From an uncultured Chloroflexia bacterium (GTDB lineage: Bacteria; Chloroflexota; Limnocylindria; QHBO01): DNA of 64,000 bases. This document shows positions 9,041-41,974 of the stretch, piece after piece; positions within the stretch are counted from its first letter, which is position 1, and every line of letters begins with the position of its first letter. The position numbers and the translations under genes are program-made. The notes beneath the pieces are model-generated. The model was not told where the DNA came from, ran no database searches, and saw only the letters and a list, made by a program, of their open reading frames with translations. Where the stretch lies: NCBI GenBank assembly GCA_963814375.1, contig CAWFCQ010000008.1:160001-224000 (forward strand), in the 5' to 3' direction.

Positions 9041-9994
9041 TCACCCGGCGCGAGCTGCCTGGCGCTCCAGCGTTCGTGACCGCTTCTCCTCGAAGCGTGT
9101 GGCCTGCGCGTCGAGGTCGGTGATGAATGCCCGCAGCTCGGCTCGGCGCATCTCGGCCGAGGGGGAGAGGTTCTCGAGCTCGAAGACGCCCCAGTGGTCG
9201 AGCAGCGGCCAGAGGACGTCGTCGTGATGAACGCGAAGGTCGTAGATGCCGGCCTTTGCCATCTGCGCCGCCTTCCGCGTGAAGTTCACCATGCCTGCGC
9301 CCGGCATCTGGAAGTCGAGCACCTCGTCGGCGATGGCGTGCACCGCCGCGGATGGATCCAGCTTGATCGCCTCGCCCAGCATGTCTCGGTAGAAGACCAT
9401 GTGAAGGTTCTCGTCCGCGGCGATGCGGGCCATGATGCGGTCCGCCACCGGGTCCGATGAGTAACGGCCGGTGTTGCGGTGGCTGATCCGCGTGGCGAGC
9501 TCCTGGAAGGCAACGTAGGCCAGTCCGCGCAGGACGTTGCCTCCGTCGTCGTGGTTGTAGGCGATCTGCAGCTGGTTCATCCGGGAGCGCTCGAGCGCGA
9601 CGGGATCGATGTTGCGGGTCACGACGAGGTAGTCGCGCAGGACGATGCCGTGGCGGCCCTCCTCGGCGGTCCATCGGTTCACCCAGTTGATCCATGGCCC
9701 GTCGCCGCGCCCGAACATCCGATGGATCTCCCGGTGGTACGAGGGCAGGTTGTCCTCGGTGAGGAGGTTCACCTCGAAGGCGACCTGCGCGACACCGCTG
9801 ATGCGGGGTTGGTCCGGCGTCCAGGGTTCCTTGTCGAAGTCGCGGCCCATCGAGTAGGGGATGTAATCGTGCGGGAACCACTCCTTGGCCATGTCGAGAT
9901 GGCGGTTGAGGAAGCGCTCGGCGGCAGGCTCGAGCTGGGCAAGGAGATCTGCGGGCGGGGTGAACGTGGGCTCAGGGATATTCGACGCTGTCAT
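9041..9994 (-). CDS. acyl-ACP desaturase (DesA1-like, diiron)
   Basis: LTEDNLPSYH, WTAEEGRH, FQELATRISH and AADENLH diiron motifs; FQMPG. Confidence 0.92.
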   Translation of the reverse strand: MTASNIPEPTFTPPADLLAQLEPAAERFLNRHLDMAKEWFPHDYIPYSMGRDFDKEPWTPDQPRISGVAQVAFEVNLLTEDNLPSYHREIHRMFGRGDGPWINWVNRWTAEEGRHGIVLRDYLVVTRNIDPVALERSRMNQLQIAYNHDDGGNVLRGLAYVAFQELATRISHRNTGRYSSDPVADRIMARIAADENLHMVFYRDMLGEAIKLDPSAAVHAIADEVLDFQMPGAGMVNFTRKAAQMAKAGIYDLRVHHDDVLWPLLDHWGVFELENLSPSAEMRRAELRAFITDLDAQATRFEEKRSRTLERQAARAG

Positions 9995-10046
9995 CGCGTC
10001 GAATCGTCGCACGAATCAGCCCGGGCTGCCGGGTAGCATGCAGTAC

Positions 10047-12080
10047 ATGACCGATTCCTTCGATTTCGACGCCTATCTGCGCCTGCCGCGCCTCTCCGGC
10101 CTGCGCGCCTCTCCCGACGGCAGCCGGCTGATCGTCACGGTCGGCCGGCCGGCGCCGGATGGCAAGAAGATGCACAGCTCGCTGTGGGAGATCGACGCCA
10201 CCGGCGACGAGCGACCACGACGACTGACGCGCTCCGCTCCCGGTGAGAGCTCCGCGGCATTCGCGCGAGACGGCTCGATCCTCTTCACCTCGTCGCGGCC
10301 AGATCCGGACAGGTCACCCGACGACGGCGGCGATGACGACGAGCCAAGTGGCCTCTGGCTGCTCCCCGCCAACGGTGGCGAGGCGCGGCTGCTGGCGGCG
10401 CCTTCCGGCGGTGTCGATGCGGTCGTCGCTGCACGCGACGCGGATGTGGTCGTCTACGCGGCATCCGTCTTCCCCGGCAGCGCCGATGCGGCCGCCGATC
10501 GTGAGCGGCACGCGGCGCGCAAGAAGGCGGGGGTCGAGGCCCTCCTCTTCGACACATTCCCGATCCGGCACTGGGACGCGTTCCACGGCCCGCGTGAGCG
10601 GCACCTGTACGCAGCGCCGATCCCGGGCGGGGAGGAACGCATCGGCGACGCAGTCGACCTGACGCCGACGGCCGGGTCGGCGCTGACCGAGCAGGAGTTC
10701 GACGTCACGCCCGATGGCGGAACGGTCGTCACCGGCCTGCTGACGCCGGACGACATCGGCAGGACCGACTTCGAGGTCGTCGCGATCGACCGCGCCACCG
10801 GCGAGCAGCGGCGGCTTGCCGGCGGCGAGGCGTGGTACCTCTCGCCGCGCTGCTCGCCCGACGGACGCTCCGTGGTCTGCGTGCGCCACGAGATCGACGT
10901 GCCGGAGCGGATCGGCGACGAGACTCTCTGGCTGGTGGACCTGGCCACCGGCGAGGGGCGCGATCTCACACCCGAGCTGGACGCCTGGCCTCAGCACCCG
11001 ACCTGGAGCCCCGACGGGGCATCGATCTGGTTCACCGCCGATCTTCGCGGCGCGGGGGGCGTGTACCGGCACGACCTCGCGTCCACAGAGACGACACTCG
11101 TCGCCGACGACGGAGCGTTCAGCGACCTGGCCCTCGAGGCCGCCGGCGGACCCGTCGCCCTGCGCGCCTCATACACCGAGCCGCCGGTTCCGGTGCGCCT
11201 GCCGTCCCAGGCGGCCGCCGGTTCCCGGCGCATCAGGACGTTCCCCGAGCTCGACGCCGAGGCGCTCGACGACGCCTTGCCGGCGCGTGCCGAGCGGCTC
11301 AGCGCATCGGCCCCCGACGGCCAGGAGATCGGCTCCTGGCTGCTCCTGCCGAAGGGGGCCACCGCCGATGCGCCCGTCCCGCTCGTCGTGTTCGTGCACG
11401 GCGGCCCGGTCGGGACATGGAACACGTGGAGCTGGCGCTGGAATCCGCAGCTGATGGCCGCGAAGGGTTACGCCGTGCTCCTGCCGGACCCCGCCATCTC
11501 GACGGGGTACGGCCATGCCTTCGTGCAGCGCGGCTGGGGCCGGTGGGGCGCGGAGCCTTACACCGACGTCATCGCCGCCGTCGACGCGGCGCTCGAGCGT
11601 CCCGAGCTCGACGGCGATCGGACGGCGCTCATGGGCGGCTCGTTCGGCGGCTACATGGCGAACTGGGTCGCCGGCTCGACCGAGCGGTTCAAGGGAATCG
11701 TCACGCACGCCAGCCTCTGGGAGCTTCGCGGCTTCCACGGGACGACCGACTACGGTCCGGACTGGGAGCGCGAGTTCGGCGATCCCTACGCCGATCCTTC
11801 ACGGTACGAGGAGTGGTCGCCGTCGCGCCTTCTGGCGAATATCCGAACGCCGATGCTCGTCATCCACGGCGAGCGTGACCTCCGCGTGCCGATCAGCGAG
11901 GCGCTGCGCCTCTGGACCGACCTGCGTCGCCACGGCGTGCCGGCACGGTTCCTCTACTACCCCGACGAGAACCACTGGATCCTGAAGCCGCAGAACGCGC
12001 GGCTCTGGTACGAGACGGTGTGGGCCTTCCTGGGTGAGCAGCTGCGCGGTGAGGAGTTCCAGCGACCGGCGCTGCTCTGA
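10047..12080 (+). CDS. S9 family (prolyl oligopeptidase/acylaminoacyl) peptidase
   Basis: N-terminal beta-propeller; VHGGP, GGSFGG nucleophile, HGERDLRVP, PDENHW. Confidence 0.93.
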   Translation: MTDSFDFDAYLRLPRLSGLRASPDGSRLIVTVGRPAPDGKKMHSSLWEIDATGDERPRRLTRSAPGESSAAFARDGSILFTSSRPDPDRSPDDGGDDDEPSGLWLLPANGGEARLLAAPSGGVDAVVAARDADVVVYAASVFPGSADAAADRERHAARKKAGVEALLFDTFPIRHWDAFHGPRERHLYAAPIPGGEERIGDAVDLTPTAGSALTEQEFDVTPDGGTVVTGLLTPDDIGRTDFEVVAIDRATGEQRRLAGGEAWYLSPRCSPDGRSVVCVRHEIDVPERIGDETLWLVDLATGEGRDLTPELDAWPQHPTWSPDGASIWFTADLRGAGGVYRHDLASTETTLVADDGAFSDLALEAAGGPVALRASYTEPPVPVRLPSQAAAGSRRIRTFPELDAEALDDALPARAERLSASAPDGQEIGSWLLLPKGATADAPVPLVVFVHGGPVGTWNTWSWRWNPQLMAAKGYAVLLPDPAISTGYGHAFVQRGWGRWGAEPYTDVIAAVDAALERPELDGDRTALMGGSFGGYMANWVAGSTERFKGIVTHASLWELRGFHGTTDYGPDWEREFGDPYADPSRYEEWSPSRLLANIRTPMLVIHGERDLRVPISEALRLWTDLRRHGVPARFLYYPDENHWILKPQNARLWYETVWAFLGEQLRGEEFQRPALL

Positions 12081-12091
12081 GGGACGTTGGG

Positions 12092-13363
12092 TTACGGGTA
12101 GAGACCGCGCAGGGAGGTTGCGTCCGCGACGCGCGCGACGGCGACCATCATCGCCGCGCTGCGCAGGTCGATCTTCTCGGTCTCGGCCATGGCCTGGATG
12201 CCGGCCATGGCGCTATCGACGATGCGGTCCATCTGGGCGGTGATCTCGTCCTCGGTCCAGAAGAAGGCCTGCATGTCCTGGACCCACTCGAAGTAGCCGA
12301 GGACCGTGCCGCCCGCTGTGCAGATGATGTCCGGGATGACGGTCACGCCGCTGTCGTGGAGGATGAGGTCGGCTGCCGGGGTCGTGCCGCCATTGGCGAT
12401 CTCGGCCACGATGCCGGCGCGGATCGAGCCCGCATTCGCGTCGGTCACCTCGCCCTGCAGGCCGGCGAGGGCGAGGATGTCGCAATCGAGCGCGAACAGC
12501 TCCGCCTTCGTGAGCGGCTCCGTGTCGGGCAGCCCGCGGATGGCGTCGTGCTCGCGCATCCACTCGACGGCGCGCTTCACGTCGATTCCGGCGCTGTTGG
12601 CGACCGCCTCGCGGTCATCGGCGATGCCGATCACGATCGCCCCGATCTCCGCCAGCTCTTCCGCCACCGTCATGCCGACCCGGCCGAAGCCCTGGATCGC
12701 GACCTTCGCGCCGCTGCAGGCGAAGCCCTGGGCGTTGGATATCGCCGCGATGCAGCGATACGCGCCACGTGCCGTCGCGCTGCGGCGCCCGCGCGTTCCG
12801 CCCACCTCGAGCGGCTTGCCGATGACCGAGGCGGCGACGGTGTGACCGCGGTGCATCGAGAGCGTGTCCATGATCCAGGACATCGTCTGCGAGCCGGTGT
12901 TGACGTCGGGGCTCGGGATGTCGCTGTCCGGACCGAGCAGAATGCCAATCTCTGTCGCGTAGCGGCGCGTCAGCCCCTGGCGCTCGTTGTCGCTCAGGCG
13001 GCGTGGGTTGACGCGGACGCCGCCGGCGGCACCGCCGAACGGGATCTCGACCAGCGCCGCCTTCCAGGTGTTGAGCATCGCCAACGCCCGGACCTCGTCG
13101 AGGTCGAGGTTCGGGACGTACCGAATGCCGCCGCTCGTCGGCCCGCGGTTCACGTTGTGGTGGACGCGGTATCCGGTATAGACCTCGACGTGACCGTCGT
13201 CGTGGGTGACCGGGAAGCTCACGGTGAGCTCGCGCTTCGGCACCCGCAGGACGCGGTGCATCCCATCGTCGAGATGGAGGCGCTCGGCCGCGGCGTCGAC
13301 CTCTCCCTGCGCGTTTGCCCAGATCCCGTTGGCCCGCGAGGTCGGCGGTTCGGAGGTCGTCAT
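12092..13363 (-). CDS. glutamate dehydrogenase paralogue with degenerate active site (putative regulatory subunit)
   Basis: Colinear with the GDH at 38992-40260 but has GPTSGG for GPAKGG, GGAAGG for GGGKGG and VLGYFEW for TVSYFEW. Retains TWK, PD and GFGRVG. Confidence 0.85.
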   Translation of the reverse strand: MTTSEPPTSRANGIWANAQGEVDAAAERLHLDDGMHRVLRVPKRELTVSFPVTHDDGHVEVYTGYRVHHNVNRGPTSGGIRYVPNLDLDEVRALAMLNTWKAALVEIPFGGAAGGVRVNPRRLSDNERQGLTRRYATEIGILLGPDSDIPSPDVNTGSQTMSWIMDTLSMHRGHTVAASVIGKPLEVGGTRGRRSATARGAYRCIAAISNAQGFACSGAKVAIQGFGRVGMTVAEELAEIGAIVIGIADDREAVANSAGIDVKRAVEWMREHDAIRGLPDTEPLTKAELFALDCDILALAGLQGEVTDANAGSIRAGIVAEIANGGTTPAADLILHDSGVTVIPDIICTAGGTVLGYFEWVQDMQAFFWTEDEITAQMDRIVDSAMAGIQAMAETEKIDLRSAAMMVAVARVADATSLRGLYP

Positions 13364-13489
13364 CGGCGAATAGGCTAGCGCCCCCATGCAAGTGCCCGGA
13401 ATGGCAAGATTGGCAAGTTCACTCCAGACCGATGCGCCGGCGGCCGACCAATGACCGACCGGACGTCCGACAACCCGAGGAGGTCCCCG

Positions 13490-14428
13490 ATGGCGCCACG
13501 CGTCATGACCGTGTCCGGGCCGATCCCGCCCGAGAAGCTGGGCTTCACGCTCCCGCACGAGCACACCGGCATCTACCTCTGGCACATCGAGAAGCGGTGG
13601 GACTACTGGGAGCTGACGCCGAACGAGGACCTCATCGCCGAGGAGCTGCGCGACTTCCGTCGCCGCGGCGGCGGAACGCTGGTCGACCTGACGCTGGATG
13701 GGGTCGGGCGTGACCCGCATCGGCTTCGGAGGCTCGCGGGCGTCACCGGCCTGAACATCGTGATGGGCACGGGCTGGTACCGCGGCGCGCACTACCCGGC
13801 CGAGGCGCTCATCGATCGCCGCACCGTGGACGACCTGGCGGCGGCGATGATCGCCGAGTTCGAGAACGGTGTCGCCGATACCGGCGTCCGGCCCGGAATC
13901 ATCGGCGAGATCGGCACCGACAAGCCGTGGGTCAGTGCTCTGGAGGAGCGGGTGCACCGCGCTGCGGCGCGCGCGTCGCTTGCCACCGGGATGGCGATCA
14001 CGACGCACGGCGTGCAGTCGGCGGTGGGACTGGCACAGCTGCGCATCTTCACCGACGAGGGGGTCGACCCCGCCCGCGTCGTCATCGGCCACGCCGACTC
14101 GTATCCCGATCTCGACTTCTACCTCGCCGTTCTCGACGCTGGAGCGAATCTCCAGTTCGACTTCCTCGGCCACCGATTCGGGACCGAGGAGTCGCTGGAG
14201 CCGCGCCTGGTCGAGATCGTGGTCGAGCTGCTCGAGCGCGAGTACACGGGGCAGCTCCTCCTCTCCCAGGACGTGTGCCACAACCGTCAGCTCAAGGCGA
14301 ACGGCGGCTTCGGCTACGTGTACCTCCACCAGCACTTCCTGCCGACCCTGCGGACTGCGGCGGTCGGGGAGGGGGAGATCCGGACGATGACCATCGACAA
14401 CCCGGCGCGGATCCTCACGCTCCCGTAG
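13490..14428 (+). CDS. phosphotriesterase-family (Php-like) amidohydrolase
   Basis: GAGGAGG SD; LPHEH, GIIGEIG, ITTH, VIGHAD, LLSQD, IDNPAR. Confidence 0.92.
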   Translation: MAPRVMTVSGPIPPEKLGFTLPHEHTGIYLWHIEKRWDYWELTPNEDLIAEELRDFRRRGGGTLVDLTLDGVGRDPHRLRRLAGVTGLNIVMGTGWYRGAHYPAEALIDRRTVDDLAAAMIAEFENGVADTGVRPGIIGEIGTDKPWVSALEERVHRAAARASLATGMAITTHGVQSAVGLAQLRIFTDEGVDPARVVIGHADSYPDLDFYLAVLDAGANLQFDFLGHRFGTEESLEPRLVEIVVELLEREYTGQLLLSQDVCHNRQLKANGGFGYVYLHQHFLPTLRTAAVGEGEIRTMTIDNPARILTLP

Positions 14429-36506: not shown

Positions 36507-38828
36507 CTAGGTGAGCGCGGCGAGGACCTGGTCCAGGGTCGCGACGATGACCGCCGCCTCGTCCCGGGTGATGCACAGCGGTGGCCGGATCTTGATGGTG
36601 TTGCCGAGGCGGCCGGTGCTGCCTATGAGGACGCCGGCCTCGGCCATCTCGTCCTTGACCCGCGCGGCGAGATCGGTCGCCGGTTCGCGGGTGGCCCGAT
36701 CGCGGACCAGCTCGACGCCGGTCATCAGCCCACGGCCGCGCACGTCGCCGATGACGGGATGGCGCGCAGCGAGATCAGCGAGCGACGCGCGGAGCTCATC
36801 GCCCACGGAGGCGGCGTGCGCAACCAGTCCCTCCTCCTGGATGACGTTGAGGACGGTGAGAGCTGCAGCACAGGCGACGGGATTGCCCCCAAATGTGCTG
36901 AAGAAGGTCGTCCGCGAACCGAGCCGATCGGCGATCTCGGCGCGCGTGATGACCGCGGCGACCGGGTGACCATTCCCCATAGGCTTGCCGAGGGTGACGA
37001 TGTCGGGAACCACGCCCCAGCGGCTGAAGCCCCACAGCTCTCCGGTCCGCCCGTGGCCGGACTGCACCTCGTCCGCGACGAAGAGCGCACCCGCATCGCG
37101 CGCCGCCCCGACGATCCCCGCCACCACGTCCGGCTCCGGCACGAAGATGCCGTCCGCGGTGAAGGTCGAGTCGATGAACAGCGCCGCGGGCCGCCGTCCA
37201 CGGTCGGCTAGGCGTTCGACGGCGCCCGCGACCTCGGCGCGCCCGACCGACGCCGGATCGGCCGCATCGGCGTAGCGGCCGCGGTAGGTGTCGGGAGCCG
37301 CGAAGGTCTCCACGCCGGCGGGCTGCTCGCCGCGCGGCCACTCCGAGGGCGAGAAGTCGGCGATCGCGGCGGTGACGCCGTGGTACGCCCACTCGGTGAC
37401 GAGGCCCGCATCGGCTCCGGTGTAGGTCGTCGCCAGGCGCCAGGCGAGGTCGTTCGCCTCCGAGCCGGAGTTGACGAACATCACCGTGTCGAGGCCGTCG
37501 GGCATCGTCGCCACCAGGCGCTCGGCCAGCTCGACGACGCGCTCGTGCAGATAGCGCGTGTTCGTGTTGAGCGCCGCGGCCTGGCGGGCGATGGCCTCGA
37601 CCACCCGCGGGTGAGCGTGCCCGACCACCGGCACGTTGTTGTAGGCGTCGAGGTAGCGCCGCCCGTCGGCGGCCTCCATCCATGCGCCCGAGGCGCGGAC
37701 CAGGTGAAGCGGACGCCGATAGCTGAGGCCCTCGAGCGCAGAGCCCAGCACGGCGTGCCGTCGGCGGCAGGAGCGAGTCGTCGGGCTCGCGATGCCGGAT
37801 CGGCGCTCGGGCGATCGCCGCCAGCCGGTCTCCCGCCTCGTCAAAGCCGATTGCATCGAGCTGCTCGAGCAGCGCCCACGCCGGCTCGGACCAGGCGTGG
37901 ATGTAGGCGTTGTCGGGGTACTGGCGCGTCCGGAAGGCGCTGATCAGGATCGTCTGCGCCATTCGCCCCGCAAGCAGGTCTCCCAACAGCGCCGCCTCGC
38001 GCTCTTCGAGCGGGATGACCGATGCGTAACCGGCGAGGAACGCATCGGCGACTTCAAAGATGTCGGTGCGGTCGCGGACCAGCGACTGGAGGGTGGCGGG
38101 AACGTCGAGCACGAGCGCGGTGTGGGCCATGTCGCCGAAGTCGATGATCCCGGTCACCCGATGCTCCTCGTCGAGCAGCAGGTTGTCGAGCGTGACGTCG
38201 TTGTGGATCACCTGCGCCCGGAGGCTCGGAAGCACGGGCAGGACCGTCGCCTGAAAGCGCTCGATGACTCGATCGAGCAGTGCGCGCCGCTCGCCGTCCT
38301 CGATCAGCGCGGCGTGCCGGAACAGCAACGGTAGGCGCTGCTGATCCCACAGGATGGTCCGACCGGCCGCGGGATGGAAGAAGCCGCGAAGGGCATGGCC
38401 GAGGCGGCCGACGACCTCACCGATGCCCGCGATGGCGTCGAGGTCGAGCTCCCCGGGCACGGCGTTGCGGCCGGGCATGAGCGGCAGAAGGCGGACGAGG
38501 TGGATCGCCGTTGCCGATCTCCACCGATGAGACTGTCGAGCCATCGAGCGCCGGGACGGCCACCGGCACGGGCAGCCCGGGGTCGACCGCGGCGATGTGC
38601 TCGACCGCGGCCACCTCCATCTCGACCACGCCGCGGTCCTCGACGGCGTTCGAGACCTTCAGGACCCATGCGGCGCCCTCCGCTTCGGTGAGGCGGAAGT
38701 TCTGGTCGCGCTCGCTGACCAGCGCTTCGGCACTCGCGGTCAGGCCGAAGGTGCCGCGGGCAATCTCCTCGGCGTCGCTCTGGCGTGAGCTCAGGCGGCG
38801 CGGCGTCGAGAACGTCGGCGGTCGTCAT
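36507..38828 (-). CDS. fused aminoglycoside-phosphotransferase-like kinase + class III PLP aminotransferase/phospho-lyase; three frameshifts (~38785, ~38505, ~37780)
   Basis: SERDQNFRL...VLKVSN; VIHNDVTLDNLL and IIDFGD (kinase); YLDAYNNVPVVGH, FVNSGSEAND, ADEVQSG, TLGKPMGNG, STFGGNP (class III). Pieces lie in successive frames. Confidence 0.8.
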
Positions 38829-38991: not shown

Positions 38992-40260
<1,269 letters not shown>

Positions 40261-40263
40261 CCC

Positions 40264-40869
40264 ATGCTCGATCACGAAGAGCGCTTCCTGTTCCGCGAGG
40301 AGATCCACAACCTCGCCAACGCCCTCGCCGATCCCGGACAGCTCGACAACGTCGAGGATCTCCTGGCCGAGGTCACCACCAGCCCGCGCTTCGACGCCGA
40401 CGTCTTCACGCTCGAGCGCTCGCTCCAGGTGATGCTCGGGGGTCGTGCCGGCTCGACGCTGGTCGGCCTGCTGACTGTGGACCGCGGCGTCTTCGAGGAG
40501 CTCGGCGAGATGGGACTGCCGACGGACGTGCAGGAGCGTCTCGTCTCGTGGCGGGCGCGCTTCGGCCTCGTGATCGACAACGCGCTCAACTTCCTCAACA
40601 ACCCCGACGGCATCCAGGGGCACAACTTCGGCACACAGCTTTCGCACACCGAGGCCGGCCTCACGCTCCAGGGCCGCCTCACCCTGGTCCGCTACAACAA
40701 CGAGCCCCAGTTCTTCATCGCCGATGCCGACGTGCTTTTCTCGGTCGCTGCCGACATGCTCGAGCGCCTCGGCGAGCACCTCGAGCCGGAGATGATCGAC
40801 GCCGACCTCGTCACCCGCCTGCGCGAGGGGGTCGACCTGGTCGAGCGCCGCACGAAGCCCCGCTCCTAG
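40264..40869 (+). CDS. hypothetical protein (acidic, soluble)
   Basis: 201-aa ORF starting 3 nt after gdhA, strong GC3 bias, no recognised motif. Confidence 0.75.
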   Translation: MLDHEERFLFREEIHNLANALADPGQLDNVEDLLAEVTTSPRFDADVFTLERSLQVMLGGRAGSTLVGLLTVDRGVFEELGEMGLPTDVQERLVSWRARFGLVIDNALNFLNNPDGIQGHNFGTQLSHTEAGLTLQGRLTLVRYNNEPQFFIADADVLFSVAADMLERLGEHLEPEMIDADLVTRLREGVDLVERRTKPRS

Positions 40870-40882
40870 TCCCTCGCCCCCC

Positions 40883-41974
40883 ATGCCAGCCAAGCGCGTC
40901 TTCCTTGCGGCCACCGGGCAGAACCGCGGCAAGACGACGATGAGCCTCGGCCTGCTGGCCGCCATCCGTGAGCGCGGCCTGCGTCTCGGATTCGTGAAGC
41001 CGGTCGGCCAGCGCTACCTGGTGGTGGACGGCACCCGCGCCGATGAGGACGCCGTGCTGATGAGCGAGGTCTTCGGCCTGCCCGATGCGCTCAACGACAT
41101 GTCGCCGGTGACGCTGCCGCGCCACTTCACCACCGAGTTCGTCATGGGACGTGTCCACGACGATCTCGAGGCGCAGATCCGCGACGCGGACGCCAGGGTC
41201 GCGGCGGACAAGGACCTCGTCGTCATCGAAGGCACCGGGCATGCCGGCGTCGGGGCCGTGGTCGGCGTGTCGAACGCCCGGGTCGCCGCGCTGCTCGACG
41301 CGCCGGTGATCATCGTCAGCGAGGGGGGCATCGGCCGGCCGATCGACGAGATCGTGCTCAACTGCGCTCTGTTCGCCGCCCACGACGTACGCGTCATCGG
41401 CGCCGTCGTCAACAAGGTCGACGTCGAGTCGCATCCGCACCTGCCGGAGGTGCTCGAGCGCGGGCTGGCTCAGCACGAAATCGACCTGCTCGGCTGCATC
41501 CCGTACTCGGAGTTCCTCGCCAACCCGTCCCTGGAGCTGATCGCGACCCACCTCGAGGGCGAGCTGCTCAGCGGCGAGGCGACGCCCGGCGCCACGATCG
41601 GCTGGGTCGCCATCGGCGCGATGCAGGCGGTCCACGCCGTGGAGCTCCTCCGCGACCGGACGCTCCTCATCACGCCCGGCGACCGCGAGGACCTCCTTCG
41701 CGCCGCGATCGAGGTCAACCGCATCTCGGGCGAACGCCCGCGGGTCATCGGAATCATCCTCACCGGCGGCTTTCGACCACCGGAGCCGGTGCTGGACGCT
41801 CTGCGCCAGGCGGGGATCTTCAGCTTCCTGGTGGCGAGCGATACCTACCGCGCCGCCCAGGCCGTCGACGAGATCCTCGTCAAGACGCATGCCGCCGACA
41901 CCGAGAAGATCTCGACCATCATCGAGCTGGTGGATGGGGCGCTCGACGTCGATGGGCTCCTGGCGCGCCTCTAG
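40883..41974 (+). CDS. phosphotransacetylase N-terminal-like protein (BioD-like AAA + DRTGG, no PTA_PTB catalytic domain)
   Basis: ATGQNRGKT, GFVKPVGQ, VIEGTGH, VVNKV, LITPGDRED, ILTGG. Confidence 0.85.
   Translation: MPAKRVFLAATGQNRGKTTMSLGLLAAIRERGLRLGFVKPVGQRYLVVDGTRADEDAVLMSEVFGLPDALNDMSPVTLPRHFTTEFVMGRVHDDLEAQIRDADARVAADKDLVVIEGTGHAGVGAVVGVSNARVAALLDAPVIIVSEGGIGRPIDEIVLNCALFAAHDVRVIGAVVNKVDVESHPHLPEVLERGLAQHEIDLLGCIPYSEFLANPSLELIATHLEGELLSGEATPGATIGWVAIGAMQAVHAVELLRDRTLLITPGDREDLLRAAIEVNRISGERPRVIGIILTGGFRPPEPVLDALRQAGIFSFLVASDTYRAAQAVDEILVKTHAADTEKISTIIELVDGALDVDGLLARL

Follow-up and report, generated by a model that had tools for sequence, protein, structure and literature searches.

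Glutamate dehydrogenase (GDH) stands where the metabolism of carbon meets that of nitrogen, and the closest described precedent for an inactive, regulatory member of its family comes from Thermus. According to two accounts, Thermus GdhA is an inactive regulatory subunit that joins GdhB in a hexamer of four GdhA and two GdhB chains (PMC9570180; bioRxiv 10.1101/2025.10.31.685773); PMC12364357 is a further source on this system. The first account describes a leucine site at the subunit interface formed by Arg, Asp and a C-terminal R..YP, with residue numbers that are off by one from the printed chain (PMC9570180). Among the papers reached by our literature search, which left subscription-journal papers mostly outside, a bacterial GDH regulated by a dead paralogue was described only in Thermus. 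Here we analyze P0001, a GDH paralogue devoid of the catalytic lysine, encoded in a stretch of 64,000 nucleotides (hereinafter the window; positions 160,001 to 224,000 of contig CAWFCQ010000008.1, assembly GCA_963814375.1) from an uncultured soil bacterium of the Chloroflexia, which also codes for a canonical GDH, P0002. The P0001 lineage has lost key active-site residues, is maintained by purifying selection and arose independently of Thermus GdhA. The reading that we favor, as an evenly balanced proposition, is that P0001 serves as a non-catalytic subunit of mixed hexamers with P0002, modulating the latter as GdhA does in Thermus.

The residue-level comparison draws on Clostridium symbiosum GDH, for which one study reports that K89 and S380 bind the γ-carboxylate and set the amino-acid specificity, that K113 contacts the α-carboxylate, that D165 is the catalytic aspartate, and that N240 and V241, both within the GxGNV loop, touch the amide of the nicotinamide as well as the phosphates (bioRxiv 10.1101/2024.12.26.630402). 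These numbers were placed on P0001 by motif. The Lys of the GGGKGG motif is what we take to be C. symbiosum K125, the catalytic lysine.

Lost and retained active-site residues

P0001 belongs to the Glu/Leu/Phe/Val dehydrogenase superfamily: like P0002, it contains the Pfam domains ELFV_dehydrog_N (PF02812; 163.5 bits in P0001) and ELFV_dehydrog (PF00208; 192.1 bits), both far over the cut-off, and it matches GDHs in the PDB at up to E = 2.6e-121. The two proteins are the only GDH-family members found in the assembly (2.5 Mb, 89% complete) and align in BLASTP with 218/417 identities (52%), 0 gaps and E = 7e-167. A public gene call at the P0001 locus, P0003 (431 aa), starts 8 codons earlier, and the frame continues open 5′ of the start used here, as is usual for high-GC DNA. 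A prior sequence-only reading of the window had presented P0001 as a full-length, uninterrupted paralogue of the intact GDH, sharing with it the blocks LDDGMxRVLRVPxRELTV, YFEWVQDMQxFFWTE and VARVAxATxLRGLYP and departing from it by GPTSGG, GGAAGG, CTAGGTVLGYFE and EIANGG. The open frame of 423 residues and the gapless alignment bear out this description, the blocks are present as quoted and every substitution as written, while the γ-carboxylate roles it gave to K89 and S380 agree with the C. symbiosum study (bioRxiv 10.1101/2024.12.26.630402).

We searched 150 genomes of the same class and then read the genes; 50 of these genomes fall in the same family as our bacterium. The lysine-less copy was sequence-verified in 48 of the 50, the other two being G042, with a canonical copy only, and the unpublished G087. 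For the canonical copy, verification by sequence covers 43 of the 50; of the remaining seven, G141 has a lysine-less match only, and six were not examined. The family tallies include seven unpublished genomes, two of which (loci L010 and L014) are excluded from the analyses of 47 lysine-less and 44 canonical sequences and from the estimates of selection given below. Outside the family, among 17 loci of other families of the class, the K89 motif is kept in all 17 and the K125 motif pattern is matched in 16, L105 being the locus outside the pattern.

Within the family, the catalytic and substrate motifs of P0002 are invariant in all 44 canonical copies, which uniformly carry K, K, N, V and S at the positions of K89, K125, N373, V377 and S380, respectively. 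In the 47 lysine-less sequences the K89 position is occupied by T (33), S (11), N (2) or A (1), and that of K125 by A (17), M (15), F (14) or S (1). The stretch corresponding to the canonical CNAGGVTVSYFE is likewise altered, with T (33), S (8), A (4), I (1) or N (1) at the N373 position, L (14), M (12), T (10), F (8) and I (2) as the five commonest residues at that of V377, and G (39), A (4), S (3) or N (1) at that of S380, which is Gly356 in P0001. Further, the EAANGP of P0002 reads EIANGG in P0001, the ANGP motif being relaxed across the lysine-less clade. Other elements of the active site persist: the K113-equivalent K101 in 46/47 orthologues, and the D165-equivalent D153 together with G78 and G79 (corresponding to G90/G91) in 47/47. 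The sequence-only reading had passed over this retention of the K113 and D165 equivalents and, likewise, that of the GxGxxG loop. Because the catalytic Lys and the two γ-carboxylate ligands are gone, P0001 is predicted to be incapable of the GDH reaction (EC 1.4.1.2-4). Hence, the label 'glutamate dehydrogenase (NAD(P)+)' that public sources attach to P0001-type genes is probably wrong for metabolic reconstructions.

The same pattern could in principle mark a neofunctionalised enzyme, in which a remodelled and less charged pocket keeping K113 and D165 would act on a neutral substrate in an NAD(P)-linked or other reaction that does not need the lysine. The conservation of K101, D153, G78, G79, the GxGxxG loop and D249 fits such an enzyme, as does purifying selection over the whole protein, and K89 and S380 are, by the study cited above, the very positions that set specificity in C. 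symbiosum GDH. However, the old pocket positions vary freely among the orthologues (entropy 1.2–2.3 bits), which argues against a new precise catalytic site: alternation of A, M, F and S at the catalytic Lys, of L, M, T, F and I at V377 and of T, S, A, I and N at N373 is unexpected in a working site. The relaxed ANGP motif and the Arg that replaces the N240-equivalent contact to the nicotinamide and phosphates also count against it. To our knowledge, no characterised Glu/Leu/Phe/Val dehydrogenase does without the lysine. We thus hold a new catalytic function to be quite improbable.

Conservation, selection and independent origin

The lysine-less form is by no means restricted to our bacterium. 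The best 120 of 5745 public homologues (8000 candidates scored) are 78–100% identical to P0001, come mostly from soil metagenomes and, where named, are assigned to Chloroflexota or Candidatus Limnocylindria, plus one Binatia. Both lysines are absent from all 120, the K125 position being uniformly Ala and that of K89 being S, M, T, N or A; with these best matches all belonging to it, the P0001 clade is abundant in soil metagenomes.

We estimated the ratio of nonsynonymous to synonymous divergence (omega) by the Nei–Gojobori method, pooled over ten close genome pairs. For the whole gene omega is 0.164 in the lysine-less copy and 0.100 in the canonical one; the corresponding values are 0.097 and 0.057 for domain I (residues 31–195), 0.237 and 0.155 for domain II (196–345), and 0.122 and 0.083 for the C-terminal part, while the closest single pairs give 0.06–0.14 and 0.03–0.10. 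Over all 903 genome pairs (NG86) the medians are 0.37 and 0.19, both inflated because synonymous divergence saturates in GC-rich DNA, and the claim of selection therefore rests on the close pairs. The one sign that could favor a decaying pseudogene or an assembly artefact is the pace of change, with amino-acid evolution about 2.3 times faster than in the canonical copy (median, 903 genome pairs) and 106 invariant columns as compared to 224. Yet, the frame is open in 49/49 orthologous loci read, omega is as low as 0.16 overall and 0.10 in domain I, and intact homologues number in the hundreds in public metagenomes. P0001 is thus clearly under purifying selection despite its faster evolution, and decay or artefact is hardly credible.

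Two studies of soil metatranscriptomes yield contigs of 148–262 nt from RNA libraries that fall within the P0001 gene with 0–3 mismatches, for example at 13221-13396 (X4 record 25, 0 mismatches), 13221-13479 (X1 record 7) and 12336-12500 (X3 record 13). They hint weakly at expression; stretches of the gene that no contig covers are uninformative, and X2, X3 and X4 hold small shares of the RNA runs.

Phylogenetic analysis clarifies the provenance of the lysine-less form. In a 48-row tree (IQ-TREE quick, LG+C20) the lysine-less sequences form one clade (Shimodaira–Hasegawa-like approximate likelihood ratio test, SH-aLRT, 99), to which the canonical GDHs of the same family are sister (SH-aLRT 100), and the joint clade is nested among the canonical GDHs from the rest of the class. 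With 82 rows these relationships are recovered again, at supports of 100, 99 and 98. This position implies a duplication in the ancestor of the family. The gdhA-gdhB pair of Thermus parvatiensis RL was found via a degenerate pattern search. Its GdhA groups with the cluster representative P0173 (SH-aLRT 99), and the two in turn with GdhB and P0148 (SH-aLRT 94), far from the P0001 clade. When monophyly of the lysine-less clade with GdhA and P0173 is imposed on a 26-row set, the cost is 25.4 log-likelihood units, and the approximately unbiased (AU) test rejects the arrangement with p-AU 0.0067; this group was chosen once the first tree was known. P0001 shows 40% identity to GdhA and 47% to the GdhB fragment.

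T. parvatiensis GdhA reads GPAKGG, TLK and GGAAGG, so that, given the separate origins, the GGAAGG common to it and P0001 is a convergence of motif. As for the Thermus pair itself, the cluster representatives P0142, P0126 and P0127 were considered as GdhA/GdhB and ruled out by PDB searches, and the T. parvatiensis RL record (L115:2755-4025, G151:C1:499948-501176) matches gdhB in two frames with a TGA between them, a frame break beside an intact gdhA that is either a frameshift or a sequencing error. Separately, two loci of the surveyed genomes, L106 (G036:C52) and L098 (G038:C2), encode a further GDH copy of another lineage, which has both lysines and groups with representative P0129.

These results bear on several proposals of the sequence-only reading. 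It had asked whether the K-to-S and K-to-A changes persist in relatives and whether the gene is under purifying selection or drifting into neutral decay: the lysine loss is kept in 47/47 published orthologues as compared to a canonical K in 44/44, and an omega of about 0.1–0.16 is not that of decay. Its parallel with Thermus GdhA is reinforced by the GGAAGG of the T. parvatiensis protein, and its suggestion of an origin independent of Thermus is upheld by the trees and the AU rejection of a joint clade (p 0.0067).

Constraint, assembly and genomic context

The distribution of constraint along the protein offers a guide to what P0001 might still do. Of its 423 columns, 128 reach at least 90% conservation with the same residue in the two clades. 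These columns gather in residues 31–180 (33–60% per 30-residue segment) and at the C-terminus, amounting to 47–60% of residues 121–180 and only 7–10% of residues 241–330. G78, G79, R133, R134, D153, D166, the GxGxxG glycines, D249, R419, Y422 and P423 are invariant in both clades. A gapless alignment to GdhB sets the RR, D166 and RGLYP of P0001 on the leucine-site motifs, and P0001 has the full set of R133, R134, D166, R419, Y422 and P423. These residues are necessary for a GdhA-like role and not specific to it, because ordinary GDHs of the subfamily have them.

In the nucleotide-binding region, P0001 retains the GxGxxG loop and an acidic residue after β-2 (D249), the sequence hallmarks of a dinucleotide-binding fold, while the Asn of the canonical GYGNAG, equivalent to N240, has become Arg (R228) in 46/47 lysine-less orthologues. 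The lysine-less clade has further fixed features of its own: D250 in 47/47, invariant N72, L86 and G301, and N98, A102, R191, R194, D273, Q303 and L400 at frequencies of at least 90%, with the canonical R372 replaced by E or Q in 46/47. An AlphaFold2 model of P0001 built from a 47-row alignment has a mean predicted local distance difference test (pLDDT) score of 79.9 and a predicted template modeling (pTM) score of 0.81; residues 1–11, 73–78 and 145–189 fall below a pLDDT of 50, with the shallow alignment as the likely cause.

A constrained assembly domain, freely varying pocket positions and an altered nucleotide fingerprint together point to a protein that probably still folds and assembles and whose pocket no longer serves a defined reaction. 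The sequence-only claim that the oligomer interfaces and the nucleotide fold are kept accords with the constraint that acts on the oligomerisation domain, on RGLYP at the C-terminus and on the dinucleotide fingerprint. Its larger proposal, a pseudoenzyme acting as a regulatory subunit, stands in part: the protein is conserved rather than decaying and its interfaces are constrained, but the Arg at the N240 position in 46/47 orthologues leaves NAD(H) binding in doubt.

We propose the following scenario: the canonical GDH was duplicated in the ancestor of this Chloroflexota family (close homologues of which are named Candidatus Limnocylindria), and one copy, P0001, became a pseudoenzyme, predicted to be unable to run the GDH reaction, while keeping the fold, the oligomerisation domain, the interface leucine-site residues and the dinucleotide fingerprint. 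In the likeliest mechanism, it would co-assemble with P0002 into mixed hexamers and tune their activity or allosteric response, as the inactive GdhA does for GdhB in Thermus. A complex prediction for P0001 and P0002 with two alignments lends weak support to such an assembly, scoring 0.48 as compared to 0.00 for the best of 3 controls, though this may reflect likeness to solved GDH hexamers. The mark applied was reached by 58/80 solved complexes and 2/110 mismatched pairs; passes with a score of 0.60 or under account for only 7 of the 80 solved complexes and for both mismatched pairs that passed. Contacts coincide to at least 93% across the three runs, with a partner pLDDT of at least 89.

The clade-specific residues also lend themselves to a different explanation, namely that P0001 is a stand-alone non-catalytic protein, which would build a homo-hexamer by itself, sense a metabolite or NAD(H) and act on some partner that is not GDH, e.g., a regulator or a neighboring enzyme. 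The invariant GxGxxG and D249, the clade-fixed changes R228 and D250 at the nucleotide site, the invariant N72, L86 and G301, and the near-fixed R191, R194, D273 and Q303 are all compatible with such a protein, and the gene is unlinked from the canonical GDH. There is also a precedent, in that, by one of the Thermus accounts, an NAD-sensing dead alanine dehydrogenase of Thermus acts on an unrelated enzyme (bioRxiv 10.1101/2025.10.31.685773). Moreover, a phosphotriesterase-family gene is the divergent neighbor in 24/29 orthologous loci (23/27 without two unpublished genomes), down to 60% identity. This neighbor might, however, merely reflect general synteny: in most genomes of the family the lysine-less and canonical GDH genes lie on one contig, 20–30 kb apart, and this recurrent spacing implies that the whole region is syntenic. 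Because the family is generally syntenic, the phosphotriesterase gene is no evidence of a functional link. The strongest conservation, in turn, lies in the parts common to the canonical paralogue (domain I and the C-terminus), and no partner candidate was identified. On balance, a stand-alone sensor appears somewhat unlikely to us.

The coordinates of the genes and motifs are collected in Table 1. By layout P0001 is monocistronic. In the divergent intergenic region of 87 nt upstream of it, no Shine–Dalgarno-like run precedes the ATG at 13363, and some 7–12 nt upstream of that ATG there is a TAGCCT-like box; the P0001 mRNA is either leaderless or starts from the upstream ATG at 13387. Around P0002, the 201-codon ORF (open reading frame), which has no Pfam match and starts 4 nt after the P0002 stop, may be co-transcribed with it, and the overlapping long ORFs on its other side may be one fused or frame-ambiguous gene in high-GC DNA.

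Table 1. Positions in the window of the two GDH genes, the discussed motifs of P0001 and the adjacent features.
Feature	Position	Strand	Remarks
P0001, lysine-less GDH paralogue	12092..13363	minus	423 codons and stop, no interruption (translation)
Possible alternative P0001 start	13387	minus	MGALAYSP in frame upstream; 431-aa form
GPTSGG (canonical GPAKGG)	13127..13144	minus	K89-equivalent, residue 77, is Ser
GGAAGG (canonical GGGKGG)	13019..13036	minus	K125-equivalent, residue 113, is Ala
GFGRVG, dinucleotide fingerprint	12674..12691	minus	G225, G227 and G230 invariant
DD pair, D249 and D250	12614-12619	minus	Invariant in the lysine-less clade
CTAGGTVLGYFE (canonical CNAGGVTVSYFE)	12287..12322	minus	N373, V377 and S380 equivalents replaced, variable among orthologues
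C-terminal LRGLYP	12095..12112	minus	R419, Y422 and P423 invariant in both clades; match the C-terminal Thermus leucine-site residues
P0002, canonical GDH	38992..40260	plus	422 aa; all catalytic and substrate motifs intact; candidate catalytic partner
S9 peptidase gene	9885-12080		Convergent with P0001
Divergent intergenic region	13364-13450		87 nt
Phosphotriesterase-family gene (PF02126)	13451-14428	plus	Divergent from P0001
Overlapping long ORFs	36507-38544	minus	Upstream of and divergent from P0002; APH phosphotransferase and class-III aminotransferase domains
201-codon ORF	40264-40869	plus	Follows P0002
AAA_26 and DRTGG gene	40883-41974		After the 201-codon ORF

Returning to the mixed-hexamer proposal, several observations weigh against it. 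The complex-prediction pass is a weak one, of the kind that any pair of GDH paralogues should give, and it may stem from likeness to the GDH hexamers already solved. Pocket geometry cannot be read from the P0001 model because it is poor at residues 73–78 and 145–189. The retention of K101, D153, G78, G79 and GxGxxG/Asp would likewise agree with P0001 binding a ligand, or catalysing a reaction, in its own right. Co-occurrence of the two copies is uninformative on dependence, since almost all genomes of the class (148/151) have a canonical GDH match. G042 (95% complete) showed only the canonical copy and G141 (85% complete) only the lysine-less one. P0001 and P0002 are unlinked, lying 26 kb apart on opposite strands with their own upstream regions, and so do not form an adjacent co-transcribed pair of the kind seen in Thermus gdhA-gdhB. 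By eye, a TAGAAT box and a GGAGG site stand upstream of P0002 and neither of them upstream of P0001, and no common promoter motif was seen upstream of the two genes, by eye and without a systematic motif search. Finally, the RNA contigs are no proof of transcription because RNA libraries may contain DNA.

Comparison with Thermus GdhA-GdhB and other GDHs

Loss of the lysine is not unique to the P0001 clade. Among the best 150 cluster representatives at 50% identity, 23 have a non-Lys residue (A, S, M, Q, G, C, H or W) at the K125 column; two of these are fragments of the P0001 clade, and the 23 are scattered over many separate branches. The other lysine-less GDH-like lineages are distinct from the P0001 clade and show different replacements. 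Extrapolating from this, one might envisage lysine-less GDH subunits as regulatory pseudoenzymes that have evolved repeatedly and, as a class, gone largely undescribed, an idea that we put forward as speculative and on present evidence doubtful. Under it, the vestigial active site of the P0001 lineage, without the γ-carboxylate ligands and with K113 and D165, and its remodelled nucleotide site, with fixed Arg228 and Asp250, would have become sensing pockets that set the activity of mixed hexamers, and the ligands sensed might be neutral or hydrophobic amino acids or adenine nucleotides. With the canonical GDH encoded and transcribed separately, subunit stoichiometry could itself become a regulated variable. 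If P0001 does form mixed hexamers, an uncultured Chloroflexota family would have independently and convergently reinvented the Thermus solution; seen alongside the further lineages that lack the lysine, this would suggest that GDH regulation of this kind is general.

By overall sequence, P0001 is closest to the short hexameric GDHs, its best PDB matches being those of Thermotoga maritima (1b26/1b3b/2tmg) and Thermus GdhB (3aoe_A/3aog_A) at 408–409 bits. P0002 resembles these GDHs too. P0001 has the same domain architecture as these enzymes, and its alignment with GdhB is gapless over residues 12–423. However, GPAKGG, GGGKGG, ANGP and NAGGVTVSY are kept in them, and all four are changed in P0001.

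In its general make-up P0001 resembles Thermus GdhA (PDB 3AOE, chains E-F type): both are full-length short-type GDH paralogues with GGAAGG as the catalytic-Lys motif, both keep K113, the C-terminal R..YP and the RR/D leucine-site residues, and both coexist with an intact GDH paralogue in the same genome. Nevertheless, the two do not share a common descent as lysine-less forms, and P0001 scores lower against GdhA (3aoe_E, 289 bits) than against GdhB (408 bits). GdhA keeps K89 (GPAKGG) and S380, both of which are lost in P0001, whereas P0001 keeps the Asp after β-2 and adds a second, where GdhA has none (VAVATS). The gdhA and gdhB genes are adjacent, unlike the distant and oppositely oriented pair described here, and the function of GdhA has been shown biochemically while P0001 is known from sequence. 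Thus, a dead GDH paralogue as a regulator is already known; what is new in the P0001 lineage is its independent derivation, its separation from the presumed partner gene, the loss of both γ-carboxylate ligands and the retention of the NAD-type Asp.

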